Below are positions 42,675-52,537 of a stretch of DNA of 64,000 nucleotides, piece after piece. The DNA is from Hydrolagus colliei. Lineage: Eukaryota. The notes under the pieces are model-generated. The model ran no database searches. It was not told the origin of the DNA and saw only the letters and a program-made list of their open reading frames with translations. A program made the translations under genes and the position numbers. How positions within the stretch are numbered: the stretch's first letter is position 1; every line of letters begins with the position of its first letter. Location of the stretch: assembly GCA_035084275.1 (NCBI GenBank), contig CM068746.1:15934001-15998000 (forward strand), given 5' to 3'.

Positions 42675-43016
42675 TAATAATAATAATCCTTGCATTTGAT
42701 ATAGCGCTTTTCACATCTTATCGACGTCCCAAAGCGCTTCACAGAATATACTGTAAAAAGTGAATTGACTGTAAATTTGTGGGCGAAACGTGGCAGCCAA
42801 TTGCACACAGCAGTGTCCCACAAACAGTCATGGATTGAAATGACCAATTTTATTATTGTGGGTTTCTTTGGATGGATTATTATTAGGCGTGTGGAGTATG
42901 GAAACTTGCCCAAGGTTTCGCCCTGACCTGCCTGGATTCGAACACAGGTCTCCCCAGCTTGGTCTCCCCAGCTTGCAAGACAAGTGCTCTAATCACTAAG
43001 CCACAGGAGCTCCACA
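42675..43016 (-). mobile_element. tRNA-headed Deu-type SINE with the same 14-bp duplication as 10499-10838
   Basis: ggtctccccagctt x2; near reverse complement of 10499-10838. Confidence 0.9.
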
Positions 43017-44807
43017 AGCCATAGGTGCTCCACATTGTAAAGTGAACTGACTGTATATTTTGGGGGGCAAAATGTGGCAGCTAATTGCTCACAGCAGTGT
43101 CCCACGAGCAGTCATAGATTGAGTGACCAAATTATTATTATTTAATTAACATGATAGAATTTCACATTACTCACATGGATATGCATTCATACACATACAG
43201 GTATATGTACACTGGATAGCCAGTGATTGATTTGGTGCATTCCTATCAATTGCATCTCCAACAAGAATTAAATCACACCAGTGATGCTAGTATACATTAC
43301 AGCAATTAACCTGGATTTAAATCCTCGATTCCTTCGCAGGTATCTTACTCCTCTACAACATCAGAAAGAAGCACATTCCCCCCATAAGACAACAGTTTAG
43401 TTGAAGACGCCTCTTTATCAGAACTTGAAGTATTTGGACACATTATTCTGCTTCCTCCCCTCCTCCAGCTGCCAATAGAATGATTTGACACCAGAAGAAA
43501 ATACTATAGCAGAAATACCTCTGTGCTCCTGTGAAACAGTTTAGTTTCTGAATAGGGATAGTCACATATGCTCTCACAGTAACGGGTTTGAGCAAAATTC
43601 AGGTTTCCAAGTTCCAGATTTGCAGTTTGGACCTCGTGCTTATCACTTTAACAGCTCAGCAATGGTCCCAGTAATGAACAATAGATCTACCTGTGCTCTA
43701 TATGCCTTTCTACTGCTGGCATACACTCCACTTGTTTGGTTCACTGTGTGGAGCTTTGTACGAATCTGGAGTAATCGTGGGGACATTTGTACTGTTTCAT
43801 GACATTTTCTCTTTGAAACATTGCAAATTTCCACCTCCGAACTTCCTAAAGCCTAATCATCTCCATTCTGCTCCATACAAATTCCATCGTAAAGTTGTCC
43901 AAACAACACTACCTGAAGCAATGACCAGTCTGCAGACTGAATATGTGCTGTAGAAGTTCTCCGATAGTGACTGGTTTTAATGAAAGAGAAACTGGGGTTA
44001 GGGCAAAATGAAAATGGATGATTATCCAATTTCATTCATATTAAATTAGCTGGGCAGATATTTGTTGTGATGATAGTGTTGACATTTATATGCAAACTTC
44101 ATATCGAGAGGATTATAGCATCTTGATAATGTTAATGAAATACTTGAGATCAGGCAATGCATTTAAAGCTTACCATGTTGATTGATGACTGTCATGAAAT
44201 TCATGACTATCTGTTCAAAGCCTTTTAAACTGCAGACAGCAAAATTGATATTACTTGCACTGACAACACACAAGAGGGCAAATATTGAAAGGTAGTCTGA
44301 CATTGCTCTGTGTGTCATCTACTTAATCTGCTTTCATAAAGTAATCAACATCAATAAAGACTTCATCACCCTCAAAAGTATATTATTGCAGAAGCATGAT
44401 TAATGTAATAACAATATTGACAAGTAAATGTATGATAATCGCATTGAAAAATTATTTTGTTTCTTTATCACTGGCCCTTAAAGTAGTCCACATGTATTGA
44501 GCAGCTAATTGTTACATAGGCTCCTGGTAGATGAATTTGAAACTCCTTGTTAGATCAACATTTTACACCAGTGTGCTGTAAACGTCACTTGTTCCCCTCC
44601 AAGAAGATATCAAAGGTCTTGAAAACATGTGTATTCTACAAAATGGCTGATCTAACAAAGGTACTGTTCTATAATGTCTGTTGTGGTCATCAAAGCAATT
44701 CTGAATGTAGAAATGACTGTCTTATAGAACGATTCAGTGGTGAACAGACTCTTCAGCTACTTTAAGCATGTTGTGGTAGCCATCCCATTGTTCATTTCTC
44801 TTGTATT

Positions 44808-44873
44808 TCATATTCTGTAATTTCTGTTGACACTACTGGTATTACCTCGGCTAGAGTTCTTCAAGACAGTTTC
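44808..44873 (-). CDS. IGF1: IGF1 last coding exon (Ea peptide end; mammalian exon 6 equivalent)
   Basis: ttatag|GAA ACT GTC TTG AAG AAC...AGA ATA TGA = ETVLKNSSRGNTSSVNRNYRI*, vs human EVHLKNASRGSAGNKNYRM*. Confidence 0.93.
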   Translation of the reverse strand, partial: ETVLKNSSRGNTSSVNRNYRI

Positions 44874-45608
44874 CTATAATAATCAAGAGGAATGACATTA
44901 AGGAACATAATATATAACATCTGAAGTGTGTTGGATCATAGTTCTTCTTTATACCTGTGTGCCACATAACATAAGACTCATCATAAGAAATAGACAATTC
45001 TAATGATTCAGAATTCCACATAAATGTGAAAGCTCTCCCATTAAATGTGCTTTGGTATGTCATTAGAGCACCAATACATTATAGCCATTCCCTCTTAGAT
45101 GAGATCCCACCATGGAGAGGAAGCAAGCAGAGGCCAGGCACATCCCACGGGTACAGGAAAAGATACTGACAGTCAAGCCTTGACTGCCTTTACACATGTT
45201 CTAGAGGCCGCATACACAGTGGCATCAGCCTGTCCTGGCAGCAGGTTGCCTCCTGCTTATGAACGATACAAAGACCAAGGAAAGAGCTGGAGAAAAGCAC
45301 TTCAGAAAAAGAGAGAGCCTTACTTCCAATACAAACTAAACTACCTGCTAATTCAAGTTATTTGTTTTTGAATAAATTCAATTAAAACATTTTACATTGC
45401 TCTCAGCAACGGCCACTCAGTTGCGTTTGACATCTTTCAGAAAGAAAAGTAAAGTGGACATTACATCTATACAGGTTAACATCAGAGTTTGATATAGAGT
45501 TGCACATTAATGTAGGCACATGGTACATTTTAGCAGATAAGTGGAACACAATGATCTTAATTAATACTGGGGTGAAAACAAAATGTTAATAACAGTGCAG
45601 TTGCTCAC

Positions 45609-45643
45609 CTCTTTGTTTTTCTGCCAACTAATTGCTTTATATT
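45609..45643 (-). CDS. IGF1: Candidate 35-nt alternative IGF1 cassette exon (exon-5-like)
   Basis: ttctctgttttcag|AATATAAAGCAATTAGTTGGCAGAAAAACAAAGAG|gtgagc; open in phase 0: NIKQLVGRKTK(R). No transcript evidence. Confidence 0.45.
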
Positions 45644-46556
45644 CTGAAAACAGAGAATCTCAAAATTAACTGTGAAAACCCTTAAGGCTTTTCAGATACG
45701 AGGCAATAATCGATGGGGTAATTTTTCTCTGGTCAGTAAAAGTGGCTTGTAATCTTGAAATTGACTATTACACTGGCTGATGGCTGAACACAGGAAGATC
45801 TTGGCGCTAACCAACATATAGTATCAAGATACTGTAATTAGAGACAGGAGAAGCACAAGATTTTCAGAAAGAGGATATTTCAAACTGATAAATTTAGCAG
45901 TGAACAAATCTACTAATGTATTCCCAAAGTGGCTTTGTTATCAATTAAACACTAGGCAAAGCCAATGGAGACATTTAGATATCTATTTCCTTCAAAATAT
46001 CAATATGTCTGAGAAGTTAATGCTATGATTTTCATCTCCATCTCACTACTATGCTAATGAGTTTGGGTCAGTAGCTATATCATTATTCATTATTTGCCTC
46101 TTGTGGATCATCCAGCAGTGGGGTGGGGAAGAGTTAAATGGCTTAAGGGAAGGAAGAAAAGGAGAAATTGGTCAAGAAAATTGGTGACTCCATGTGCTAT
46201 TTCATAATTATCTGTTAATAAACATTACTTATATATTTCTATGGAATAGATTCCCATTGGATCCTGGGAAAATGGGAGTGTAGCCTTTCTGTGTGAACAA
46301 GTTAAAGATCAATAACATGAATAATACAATATATCTGGTGGATCTATGAGCTTGAGATTTTACATATTGCAAACATTTCACACAGCACCTTCACCTCAGG
46401 ATTACAATTCTCTTCCACAAATAATATTAAGTGTTTTTAGTGGATAACCATGAGAGATCGGATGATGATACAGTTCAAAGCCCAAGATTTTTTTTAAAAA
46501 GATAGTATTTTTTCTCTATCTATTACAGGATGAAGTCAGATCTGTTTCTTCCTTAC

Positions 46557-46723
46557 CCTTTGTCCTTTATCACTGTGGGGTTGTGTGCGTGCAGACGCCT
46601 CTGGCTTTGCTGGTTTTGCACAATACATCTCCAACAACTTGAGATCACAGCTCTGGAAGCAACATTCGTCCACAATCCCTCTATTTGCCCGCCTTGTAGT
46701 AGGCCTGTAGCCTGTCGGTTTGT
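46557..46723 (-). CDS. IGF1: IGF1 exon encoding C, A, D domains and E start (mammalian exon 4)
   Basis: atcacag|AC AAA CCG...CAA AGG|gtaagg. 167 nt, (N)[55 protein letters not shown]. Confidence 0.97.
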
Positions 46724-49700
46724 CTGTGATAAAAAAAACATACACAAAACAGAACTGAAAAATATATCTGACTTGTCGGCAGCTAAAAACCTAACAGTAC
46801 TTGTATGATTTGATACATCATCTGAGACCCACACAATACTCCAGAGGCCATGAACCTTGCTAACACAGCACAATCTACAGGCACAGGTCAGAACTGAAGC
46901 CCTGAGTATGGTGGTGACTGCCAAAAATATAATACATTTGGCAAGACAAATGCTCTGCTGTACAGAATAGATTTTGGAATGAAAAAGTCTGCTGTTGCCA
47001 AAGTTCCAGATAAGATAGCTCGTCTTCCATGGACTTGAAACTTCACAAATCAAGTGGTAGGGGACAAAAACAGACCTATAACGTCACAACATTAACGTCA
47101 CGCGATTTGACCTGCGGTCTGACCCACATTAGCAGAAACCAGTGGGTGTGGTTTTGTGCCTGCAGTTCTTCATACACTGGGGTCTTAGGCTGCCTGCTAA
47201 AAATAGCGATTTTTCCGCTATGTTTTTACAATGGAATTTGATTATAAAGCCATAGCTAAAACATCGCTATTTTTAGCGATCAGAGTAAAATCGACCCAAG
47301 TGAGCTCGCACTTCAGATATCAAGACGCAGGATGAAAAGAGATTCACTCAAAATGTAAACGTGTCAACTACGGTCACTTGTGGATGTTCTTCAGCAACTG
47401 GTTCCAGAGCAGCGCCGAAATTGAAAGCATGTTGCTCACTGGACCTCTCAATAGAGGCACAATTGTCTTGCCTTTGGCATGGAAGATTCAAACCGAATCA
47501 AAGTTAACCTCAGATAAACAATTGTTGAGGGTGCAGCTCTGTCTGTTTGAGCTCCATTGTCCGCTTCTCTTCTTTGAATTCTACAGTCCATTTGCTGTCA
47601 TCCACCAAGAGTGCACATGGTCAACCTGCCCCTGGTTTTGTCAATGCCCTCGGTCTGAAGCTAGTTGCGAGGATGTGTGCAAAGTTGGAACTTTCCTGAC
47701 ATATTAAACAAAGGTCCTATCTGCTTGTTTAGATGAGGTACAGATCAGCCATGATCTAATAGAACGGCAGAACAGAATCGAGGCACTGAATGGTCTACTC
47801 CTAGGTTTGAATGTTAAACATCCCACCATATGAAAGGGAAAGGGAGTTTCTGCTCATCTTCAGGCCAACAGTCCTCCAGATTAACTGGTTGTTCACCTCA
47901 AGGCTGTTTGGACAAATTTATTGGCGCAATTGGTTGTCGAGTTTGCCTACAAAAACAATCATTATACTTGACAGTGATTACCTGGGAAGTGCTTTGAGAC
48001 ATTTCTATGTGATAAGGCGCTATAAAAACACAAGTTTGTTCATTTTCCCACCCCCTTTATTCCTCCAATGCCATGCATTATTCTTTAGCCAAGAGGATGC
48101 AGCTGGAGGGTGGGGAGACCTACTTATGAGCGTTTGCCAGTGCTACTCTTGATCCAAATACTCAGATGTGTAACAACAGTTGGAATGGACTTGCCTGCAA
48201 CTTTCCTTCCCTCCCTCCCTCTCAGCGATCTGCTTCCCTGCTGCTTTGGGTGCCCCGACTTAAAAGAAAACCTTGTGCAAGATTATGTTAAACTGCCAAC
48301 AGAAAGGGATTGGGAGCTGGATACAGGTTTTTTACTTTTCACTCATACTTCTTATAGGAATACATCTCTTGGAAGAATACTGTGCATGCATGTAGCTTTG
48401 CTCATTAGTGATAGTTTTATGAAGTTATTACAATGCCATTTAAAATAATCAACTATAAAGCTTTTAGGTGACATTAGACCAAAAGACAATCTTAGAGCTG
48501 AAAAGGTTGGGACGTCAGCGCCTTGAGACGTCCTCCCGACGTGAAAGGTGCTCTATAAATGTAGTTTTGTTGTTGTTGTTGTTGTTGTTGTGAGAATGGG
48601 GAATTTGTTATCCCAGAAGATTGGATATTAAGAATAAATTTTGATATTTAAGGAGAGATACTGTGAATAAACACATAGGAAGGAATAATAATAATCCTTG
48701 TATTTGACATAGGGCCTTATCATGTCTTTGAGGCGTCTCAAAGTGCTTCACGGAATGTACTGTAAAGTGAATATACTGTAATGTGTATACTGTATTTTGT
48801 GGACAAAACATGAAGAAAAAGCAGAGAAACACAATTAAAGGGTTGTTCTTATAGCTGAGTGGAGTCAATCGCTTCACACCATCTGCATTTGTACTGGTGT
48901 GAATGCTGCTACAACTCTCTGAAAGTAGCTAGGCTTTCAAGTTCTAGCATGATTCACTTTCATATTGTTCATCTCAGTCCCAATTTGTACTGTTAGATGA
49001 AACATGGCAAACTTTACAAAAGCATCTTACCGTTTAAATACCAAATTCAACTTTGCTGAATTCATCAAACCTAGATAAAGTGTTGTCAACATTTTCACCC
49101 AATAGGACTTTAAGAACAAACCAAATATTGATATTGGCTGAAGTCGTGATGTTTCATACAGTGAGAGGCTGCACTAAATTATTAAAGATAGTTTTATTGT
49201 GCAAGAGCACACAATGAGGCAGAAAGTGTTTCTTTCTGATTCTGGATGCTTTACTCATCAAATTTGTGAACCATTAGTTTACTGACTGCACTTTTTAAAC
49301 ATTGTGAGGTAGAAATACCATTTGGGTCTATATTTATTCTATTAGCATTGCATTTGTGCAGAATTTGGCAAATTGTTGAATTTAGTTTTAACTTTGAAGC
49401 TTGTTTTCTGTAGTTCTTAAAAGAAAACTAGCTTCAGAATTAAAAGTTGTATTTAGGTTCCGGATGGTGTGACATGCAATATTAGTAGCATAAATTCAGA
49501 CCTAGATAGAATTTTTACTGCAAGAATTTTTAGTTTCTCATCTTCTTCTATCTATCCATCTTCATCTATAATATTAAAACGACAATGTGTATCCGTGCTT
49601 CAGGAAGGATCCCAATGACCAATTGACATAGGGACATGATTTATACCTCATCCAAAAGGTCTTGTATCTGGGAGTGATGTGGGCATATTTGTTTTGGGGT

Positions 49701-50697
49701 ATATCCTATTGTTCATGAGTTATTTTCAGTTTTGTGTTTTTTTGCTGCAGTTACATCTGGTGGCGCAGAGTCACAGTGGTGCTGTGGCATCGTGCATCAC
49801 AGAGCACCTACATATGTAGGCATGCACTGTAGTTACACCTGGTGGCTGCACATCCTGCACCACAGAGCAAATAGCCAAGCGACAAGAACAAAATAAAGAA
49901 CACAAACGAAGCTAAACGATGGCAACAACCACAAAATTACATTTCTGAAACCCTGAGGCCTCCCACTGAATCCTCCCAGAAGTCCTCCCACAGGAGTCCT
50001 CCCAGATGAGTATAGATAAAGATGAAATGTCTGTCTGTGTGTCTTTTTGTGTGTCAAACTACATTCCATATTTGATCATTGGTTGCAAGCGTAGTTGCAA
50101 CATGTACAGCTAATCTGTAATAATAATAATAATCTTTCCATTTGATTTAACAACTTATCACATCTTCGTGATATCCCAAACACTTCTTAGGATGTACTGT
50201 AAAGAGTGGTGGCTGTATATTTTGTGGGCGAAATGCAGCAGCCAATTGCACATGTAAGTGTTCCACACACAGTCATGGATTGAGTGTCCAAATTATTATT
50301 GTTATTCGTTTTTCTTTTTGTAGAATCCTCCAATTGACCAACAACTGGATTCCAACTCACCGCCAGGCAAATAGGCGTTTGTGTGTGTGGAGCAAGGAAA
50401 CTTGTCTGGTAACCAAACCCAAGTCCCAATGCCTCATTTAGTTTAGCAAAGTATTGGTAGAATGATGTGGAGATTTGAAGATTAATTTCATTCATGTGTT
50501 ATAAATCTGTTCAGCACAATATTATGTGATCATGTTTGACCATGTTTGGTGGCTGTTACAGAAAATGTCAGTGATTCCTCCAAGGAAACAGAAACCATCA
50601 CTTTACATTGTAGAACGTGCATACATTGTAGTGTTATTATATGAACTAGCTTCATGCAAAATGACTTTATCCCCAGTAATAAAGGAAGTAAACCTAC

Positions 50698-50851
50698 TGA
50701 AATAAAAGCCTCGATTACCACACACAAATTGGAGAGTATCCACCAAATCTGAACCGCAAAGAGTCTCTGGATTGGCTTCCACTCCACTCAGGATTAGCAC
50801 ACACAGCGTCAGGTAGAAGAGATGAGGGTAGGACACAAAAGCCATCCTAAC
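50698..50851 (-). CDS. IGF1: IGF1 exon encoding signal peptide and B domain (mammalian exon 3)
   Basis: tttgcag|GTT AGG ATG...TTC A|gtagg. 154 nt, [51 protein letters not shown]. Confidence 0.97.
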
Positions 50852-52537
50852 CTGCAAAGATAGCAGAATAAATTTAGCATTTAAATCTCAATCTCAACTA
50901 TTTGGCATTGATAATATAATATTAATAATAGTAGCAATTGATCTAGTGTCTTATCACGTTGTTAAGATGTATCAAAGCAATTTCAGAATATAATGTCAAA
51001 TGAATTGACTACTTTGTGAGCAAAAGGGGGTAGCCAATTGCACTCAGCAATGTCCCACAAACAGTTGTGGCTTCAATTATCAAATTAGTGTTACATTTTT
51101 GTTTAGGGCGTATTACATTTGGCTGTAGCAAATTTAAAAAAATCCTTCTGATAGTAACACTGGTGTTTACTCAAAAATAACATGCCTGCATTTTAACTAA
51201 AGGCGAGATAAGGCACAAGAAATATACTTCTTGTACCTAACGAATGAGCTGCTTATGTAGACTTCTTAAATATCATGCAGATTACTGTAAGACAAGTTAT
51301 AATAATTATAATCCTTGCATTTGATATAGCACTTTTCACATCTTCTGGACATCTCAAAGCGCTTCACAGAATATACTATAAAGTGAATTGACTGTATATT
51401 TGTGGGTGAATCGCGACAGCCAATTACGCACAGCAGTCATGGATTGATATGACCAATTAATTATTGGGTTTTTTTGAGGGATTATTATTAAGTTCTAACA
51501 AAACAATTGATTTGATTGACACAGAGAGAAATAGAAGAATCTGCTGTTGCTCCGTAATATCTGCCCTCCAAACCCCCCACCCCCATTAATATATCAGATT
51601 TCTATAGAGTATCACACTAGGTTAGTGACAAAAGCAGATTACTGCTTAGGTCAATGAGCTGACAAGTGACTTAAGGTACATTTAGCCTCAGTTTGGAATT
51701 GATTCTAACTCTACTGATGAAAGAAAACCGGCCTTAACACGAGCATATCACAATGACTTAATTAAAGTACATTTAACTAATATATGTTTCACTAGACAAT
51801 AATGTAGAGTACTGTACTTATATTAATCTTAGACTGAGCACTGAAGCAATTTCACTGCGGGTTTCATTCTGATGTTCGAGTCTGTAAAAACTACCTTGCT
51901 TGGAAATGCTACTGATGATTACTTTAAACATTGACATTGTGTTGCCTCCAAGCGTCACACAGGAGCTGATATGTTACTCCACTACCTTAGACAGCTTTGG
52001 TGCAGAGTATCGAAGAGGTACACATGCATATCACTATGGGCATAAATTACACATGGATGTTGTATAATGATAATAGCAATAAACTCAAGAGAAGCACATA
52101 TAGTACCAGTTATTCAGTGGTGAAATGTGGGATTCAGTAGTTAACTGGTGAACAAGCAAGACTAAATGTATCATAATGCCCCAATTGATCAAGAATATTT
52201 TCATCATGTAGTGTTTTATTGTTCCCTCAGTTTCAGTTTACCACATCGGTTGAAAAGAAACATATATTTTCTGTTGAACATTATTGGGGGGTTTTATTTT
52301 TACTGCTAGTATTTTAATACTCTAGAGTTTTGTGAAAGGACTTTGATCCCTCTTCATACGTGGCCGAGTATCACTTTGGAAATTCCTGAAACATAAATGT
52401 CAATAAAGACACCTTTATGGCCAATTTTGCTCACAAAATACAAGTCAAACCACAAATGTCTAACTTGTTCCTCAATTCCAAACAGTTGAAAGCCGTTAAT
52501 ACCAGTGAACTGACTGAAAACAGCCTTCTCCAAGATT

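Follow-up and report, generated by a model that had tools for sequence, protein, structure and literature searches.

The window, that is, the whole 64,000-nt stretch of Hydrolagus colliei DNA that was analyzed, carries by sequence comparison a holocephalan IGF1 gene on its minus strand (Table 1). The gene was assigned on its A exon, whose top match among the best 120 of 183 is a Logan-derived protein (P0001, 100% identity) grouped with Callorhinchus milii IGF-I, with sharks and rays following at 61-75%. Across the coding sequence, 11 of the 159 residues aligned with C. milii are different and there is a gap of 3 residues; outside the cassette exon described below, the count is 11 of 147. The start of the A-domain exon is refined here to 46723 (167 nt) relative to the earlier note made on this DNA. 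Leader exon 1b matches the N-terminus of P0001, so holocephalan IGF1 appears from its sequence to have two alternative first exons, resembling class I and class II of mammals.

Table 1. Exons and splice features of the IGF1 gene (window coordinates)
Feature	Position	Strand	Basis
IGF1 leader exon 1a, coding part, 20 codons	56791..56850	-	tblastn of C. milii isoform X2 (P0121) residues 1-24; GT donor next
Alternative leader exon 1b, coding part, 23 codons	54267..54335	-	Identical to N-terminus of Logan protein P0001; consensus donor next
Signal peptide and B-domain exon, 154 nt	50698..50851	-	49/51 residues as in C. milii
C/A/D-domain and common-E exon, 167 nt, equivalent of mammalian exon 4	46557..46723	-	52/55 residues as in C. 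milii
Cassette acceptor region: candidate branch point at about -23, pyrimidine tract, CAG	45644..45669	-	Sequence reading; branch point by consensus only
Frameshifting cassette exon, 35 nt, purine-rich 3' half	45609..45643	-	12/12 residues as in C. milii isoform X2 residues 131-142; single match in own genome
Cassette donor site; read-through stop at 45607-45605	45603..45608	-	7/9 consensus positions
Last exon, coding part: 21-residue Ea tail, two NxS/T sequons; shifted-frame stop at 44863-44861	44808..44873	-	21/21 residues as in C. milii isoform X1
3' UTR, at least this far	43284..44807	-	Strand-specific RNA depth about 7-11 (close relative, runs X2 and X4)

The last intron, 1,683 nt long, contains a 35-nt segment (45643-45609, minus strand), before which a pyrimidine tract runs into a CAG and after which comes a GT donor. 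The donor of the A-domain exon (46557) is 913 nt upstream of it and the acceptor of the last exon (44873) 735 nt downstream, which confirms the acceptor- and donor-bracketed segment that the earlier note had placed 0.9 kb after the A-domain exon. In simple consensus counts, its donor agrees at 7 of 9 positions, equal to the constitutive donor of the A exon, and its acceptor tract has 10 of 12 pyrimidines vs 8 of 12 for the last exon. By these counts the splice signals of the cassette score as high as the constitutive sites of the gene.

Using the candidate's own values as post hoc thresholds (10/12 pyrimidines, donor 7/9) on both strands of the 64 kb, we counted seven acceptor-donor pairs spaced 25-60 nt (four minus, three plus), the candidate included, and 34 spaced 25-200 nt (14 minus, 20 plus), the true A exon included; some of the other pairs counted may be real exons. 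Arithmetically, about 0.08 (25-60 nt) or 0.4 (25-200 nt) chance pairs are expected in the intron; taken by themselves, the splice signals are therefore suggestive and not decisive. Three short pairs (30345, 31092, and 31782) cluster on the plus strand between 30288 and 31816 and are possibly exons of a neighboring gene. A second strong acceptor at 45783 (minus strand) pairs with the cassette donor to give a 175-nt exon (45609-45783), which meets a stop after 16 codons and was set aside as unsupported.

The Logan contig of run X1 covers 43118-47758 with one differing letter and no gaps; the 35-nt length is therefore not an indel against this run, which is possibly the assembly's own source and hence not independent support. 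An assembly indel that reduced 36 nt to 35 was ruled out by this gapless contig and by the C. milii gene model, which is shifted too. The cassette sequence has only one match in its own genome (in a search that skipped very common words) and a near single-copy read depth, and on that single match a recent origin from a repeat was also ruled out.

Translation gives two alternative ends to the prohormone around an unchanged mature IGF1. When the cassette is skipped, the product ends in the 21-residue Ea tail with its two NxS/T sequons. When it is included, the tail has 15 residues, of which six are Lys or Arg and none Asp or Glu, has no sequon, and ends at a stop within the last exon; the frame shift and the loss of both Ea sequons claimed previously are borne out. 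Reading through the cassette donor leads at once to a stop. The use of this read-through as an Eb-like form found no such backing: it is annotated nowhere, no protein record of it was present among those compared, a sequence scan of the intron between 45609 and 44873 detected neither AATAAA nor ATTAAA, and RNA offers only the weak coverage described below.

The cassette is already present in a public gene model. Isoform X2 of C. milii IGF-I (P0121; RefSeq XP_007893560.1, identical in sequence to UniRef100_A0A4W3IBE3) has the same 12 cassette residues (12/12), and a tblastn search with these residues returned positions 45643-45608 of the window at an E value of 1.6e-6. The tail of isoform X2 is codon-compatible with the last exon of isoform X1 at offset 1, through the stop. 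Because both the residues and the offset-1 tail match, the exon, its two boundaries, and its frame are common to the two holocephalans, and we regard the C. milii exon as orthologous, with the same peptide, shifted frame, and tail length and a single Lys/Arg difference in the shifted part of the last exon. XP_007893560.1 is a predicted model; in the RefSeq pipeline, alternative isoforms are derived from transcript alignments or from RNA-seq introns. We found no paper describing this exon in either species in the open-access literature searched.

Between C. milii and the window, six of the 20 residues in leader exon 1a are different and none of the 12 in the cassette (Fisher p = 0.043), a fragile result since p rises to 0.077 with one difference fewer and the Ea tail is equally invariant (0/21). 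The cassette has 28.7 replacement sites, and the probability that its 12 codons remain unchanged is 0.56-0.23 at 2-5% neutral divergence and 0.05-0.01 at 10-15%. Selective constraint on the cassette is likely from these comparisons, but it is not established because the chance of no change is 0.23 if neutral divergence is assumed to be 5% but 0.05 if it is 10%. The living Callorhinchus species are given a common ancestor at 15.5 Ma, and the holocephalan crown group is placed at 173 Ma on morphology (PMC11521621).

The RNA data comprised three raw poly(A) runs (X2, X3, and X4) from one sample of a close relative, considered over region 43000-51500; the stretch was in no indexed RNA run. Strand-specific IGF1 depth over the last exon and 3' UTR was approximately 5-11 in X2 and X4 and below 2 in X3; the 15 joints listed, beside 4,996 further ones, all fell in repeats, and no IGF1 junction was among those 15. 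At position 44811 every read of the related organism differs from the window (16/16 in X2), replacing the last Ea residue, Ile, by Met as in P0001. Depth in the 284-nt bin containing the cassette was 2.3, 0, and 1.75 (X2, X3, and X4, respectively); the values were 0.03, 0.47, and 0 for the neighboring upstream bin and 1.71, 0, and 1.37 for the neighboring downstream bin. Low coverage of the minus strand in 44988-45839 therefore runs from the cassette bin downstream, with near none upstream, in two of the three runs of this one sample. One explanation would be splicing to the cassette and retention of the intron that follows it. We take the coverage as a hint only, because it amounts to about 5-6 reads per run in one sample, is absent from X3, and has a counterpart elsewhere in an intron in X2, where a bin has a depth of 1.75. 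The cassette is skipped in P0001, the only Logan-derived holocephalan protein, which is probably transcript-derived since its sequence joins exons, and in the C. milii GenBank protein AFK11290.1 (P0123). Ea is thus probably the main form.

Of 164 proteins compared, only C. milii isoform X2 has the cassette. It is absent from all 32 elasmobranch records, which represent 22 named species (protein annotations, with all 16 chondrichthyan cluster representatives expanded), and this absence in sharks and rays is provisional because it was judged from protein annotations rather than intron DNA. Residues 106-145 of isoform X2 used as a query found only P0001 in a search over cluster representatives with their members hidden, a search of such representatives for proteins of 30-78 residues with a cassette-bearing C-terminus gave no match, and the amphibian, turtle, and elasmobranch records compared contain no cassette-like exon. 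Conservation in other chondrichthyans, to which the earlier note had looked, accordingly extends to the C. milii model (12/12 residues) and not to the shark and ray records (0/32).

A different alternative C-terminus begins at the same junction in Heterodontus (two of three records) and Narcine (one of two), which share its start (P0128, P0129, and P0137). These tails are not a shifted last exon according to a codon-compatibility test, and that of P0128 has no match below an E value of 0.09 in the window; the shared C-terminus is possibly an alternative terminal exon of elasmobranchs. Several shark and ray models (P0014, P0015, P0016, and P0133) are without the 12-residue common E segment, apparently lost through an internal donor in the A exon.

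In ray-finned fishes, records from gar, sturgeon, and teleosts occur with and without an in-frame 12-residue E-domain insert at the same junction, and four Ea forms are mentioned in trout (PMC3608916). This Ea-2/Ea-4 insert is close in size to the cassette (12 codons vs 35 nt), but it is in frame and keeps the Ea tail and sequon, whereas the cassette of the chimaera and C. milii shifts the frame. When the peptide of the cassette was compared with 23 fish inserts in the frame used, 468 of 1000 random window 35-mers scored as high, as did 174 of 1000 shuffles; over three frames the numbers were 776 and 472 of 1000, respectively. Homology to the fish insert is thus unsupported, the similarity being at background, with the proviso that 35 nt over such a distance is a weak test.

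Catfishes provide a second Ec-like case outside mammals. The IGF1 "isoform X1" models of five genera (Tachysurus, Clarias, Pangasianodon, Neoarius, and Silurus; predicted models P0039, P0048, P0093, P0159-P0161, and P0163) have a Lys/Arg-rich insert, after which the last exon is read at offset 1, in the frame that the chimaera tail also uses, and 19 residues of the shifted tail are codon-compatible in all three species pairs tested. In contrast to the chimaera cassette, the catfish insert is longer, follows the 12-residue fish insert, and leads into a long shifted tail; by inspection its sequence is unrelated. Like the C. milii isoform, it is known from predicted models. Basic frameshifted E-tails are therefore already present in non-mammalian annotations, and the view of such a switch as mammal-restricted, which the earlier note had taken as usual, needs qualifying.

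The cassette does occupy the position of mammalian IGF1 exon 5, as proposed previously, with the common-E exon before it and the Ea exon after it. Mammalian exon 5 lies in the same intron, and when it is included the last exon is likewise read in a shifted frame, the Ea sequon is lost, and the tail becomes basic. The two differ in length, the chimaera insert having 35 nt (3n+2) vs the 49 nt (3n+1) of exon 5 used in human Ec/MGF (PMC7582825) and 52 nt in rodents. The last exon is therefore read in opposite shifted frames: the human Ec tail uses offset 2 (eight positions including the stop), and the chimaera and C. milii tails use offset 1, that of the chimaera ending three residues into the last exon. 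Exon 5 in mammals can also be terminal, with a poly(A) site of its own (Eb); no long terminal form of Eb type was seen among the protein records compared.

Against nine mammalian exon-5 peptides, 58 of 1000 random window 35-mers scored as high as the cassette, as did 288 of 1000 composition-matched shuffles, or 618 of 1000 over three frames (a comparison at the peptide level only). Since 288 of 1000 shuffles do as well, the likeness stems from A/G-rich composition; the earlier note had rightly called it weak, and we found no homology of sequence beyond composition. According to a review, Ea alone is conserved among vertebrates, and Eb and Ec arose in mammals by exonization of a MIR-b element (PMC7582825, sect. 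3.5), an origin of exon 5 that Rotwein (2017) cites as a postulate (PMC5730178, sect. 9). The chimaera cassette, for its part, has a single match in its own genome. Judged by sequence, the cassette is like exon 5 in outcome and is not a member of the exon-5 family.

We conclude, with a probability of roughly 0.6, that the 35-nt segment is a genuine but minor cassette exon of holocephalan IGF1 that arose in that lineage independently of mammalian exon 5. Independence is argued by its absence from the 32 elasmobranch records, the other reading frame, similarity no higher than that of shuffles to either mammalian or ray-finned sequences, and the reported MIR-b source of exon 5. It is somewhat unlikely that the segment is instead a cryptic exon at noise level, without selected function, kept by slow DNA change in holocephalans and annotated from few reads. 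Comparable splice-site pairs do arise by chance, seven of 25-60 nt being present in the window, the Logan-derived and GenBank proteins skip the cassette, its product is a short tail without known motif, and 12 unchanged codons are unremarkable at 2-5% neutral divergence. Set against this are the identity of all 12 residues when leader exon 1a has six differences and a gap, the retention of both exon boundaries in two species, and the low probability of no change at 10-15% divergence; moreover, if the species of the window lies outside Callorhinchus, as is likely, it parted from C. milii at the crown node, given as 173 Ma from morphology (PMC11521621).

Two homologies would make the exon older. 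The 12-residue ray-finned insert has the same junction and nearly the same length, and its optional presence in gar, sturgeon, and teleosts alike would suit an old jawed-vertebrate exon, shortened by one base and diverged in the chimaeras and lost altogether in sharks and rays. We consider this improbable, given background peptide similarity to the 23 fish inserts, the retained frame and sequon of the fish insert, and the extra loss required in elasmobranchs. Still less credible, to the point of being very improbable, is an ancestral form of exon 5 that only chimaeras and mammals have retained. The shared intron, basic charge, and frameshift speak for it, as does the small number of random window 35-mers (58/1000) that score as high, but A/G richness accounts for the likeness in the shuffles, the frame is opposite, a MIR-b origin is reported in mammals (PMC7582825, PMC5730178), and no such exon exists in the amphibian, turtle, or elasmobranch records compared. 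Of the two origins that the earlier note had offered for an MGF-like switch, the convergent one fits and the ancestral one is unsupported. An independent exon of the chimaera lineage that converges on the Ec/MGF logic is thus the likely reading.

A stop codon in the last exon avoids nonsense-mediated decay, and a message bearing the cassette would be expected to escape it. Purine-rich codons encode Lys, Arg, and Glu, so the basic character of the tail may in part be a by-product of a purine-rich exon; 15 of the last 17 nt of the cassette are purines. A purine-rich enhancer is present in human exon 5 (PMC7582825), and the basic residues could reflect exon-definition needs in both lineages. In human cells, glycosylation of Ea stabilizes pro-IGF1 and guards it against proteasomal loss, and the unglycosylated Eb and Ec forms accumulate in nuclei (PMC5995926). 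By analogy, the cassette isoform would be an unglycosylated, basic pro-IGF1 with stability, secretion, or localization differing from Ea, and it may uncouple IGF1 output from glycosylation or alter its localization.

The RxxR convertase motif at the D/E boundary (46557-46620, minus strand) is missing from the holocephalan pro-IGF1 records, which have only KxxR at the end of the A exon. The motif is present in human, sturgeon, Heterodontus, and Amblyraja and absent in Squalus (two of three elasmobranch sequences checked have it). The alternative tail could matter more in holocephalans than in mammals, and in chimaeras, which have no RxxR there, the switched tail may remain attached after secretion or be cut off precisely where the exons join.

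It is disputed whether E-peptide switching of IGF1 serves any function. Eb and Ec are described in reviews as a mammalian novelty (PMC7582825). It is possible, although we hold this view only tentatively, that the last IGF1 intron has repeatedly and independently gained frameshifting inserts, in mammals, catfishes, and chimaeras, which put a basic tail without glycosylation in place of the glycosylated Ea tail, and that the MGF-type switch is a recurrent adaptive solution rather than a mammalian invention. Non-homologous exons with the same outcome in chimaeras and catfishes would provide a natural test of E-peptide function. If sequon loss and basic charge recur with unrelated sequences and in a different frame, the function would lie in the glycosylation and trafficking of the prohormone and not in a specific "MGF peptide" sequence.
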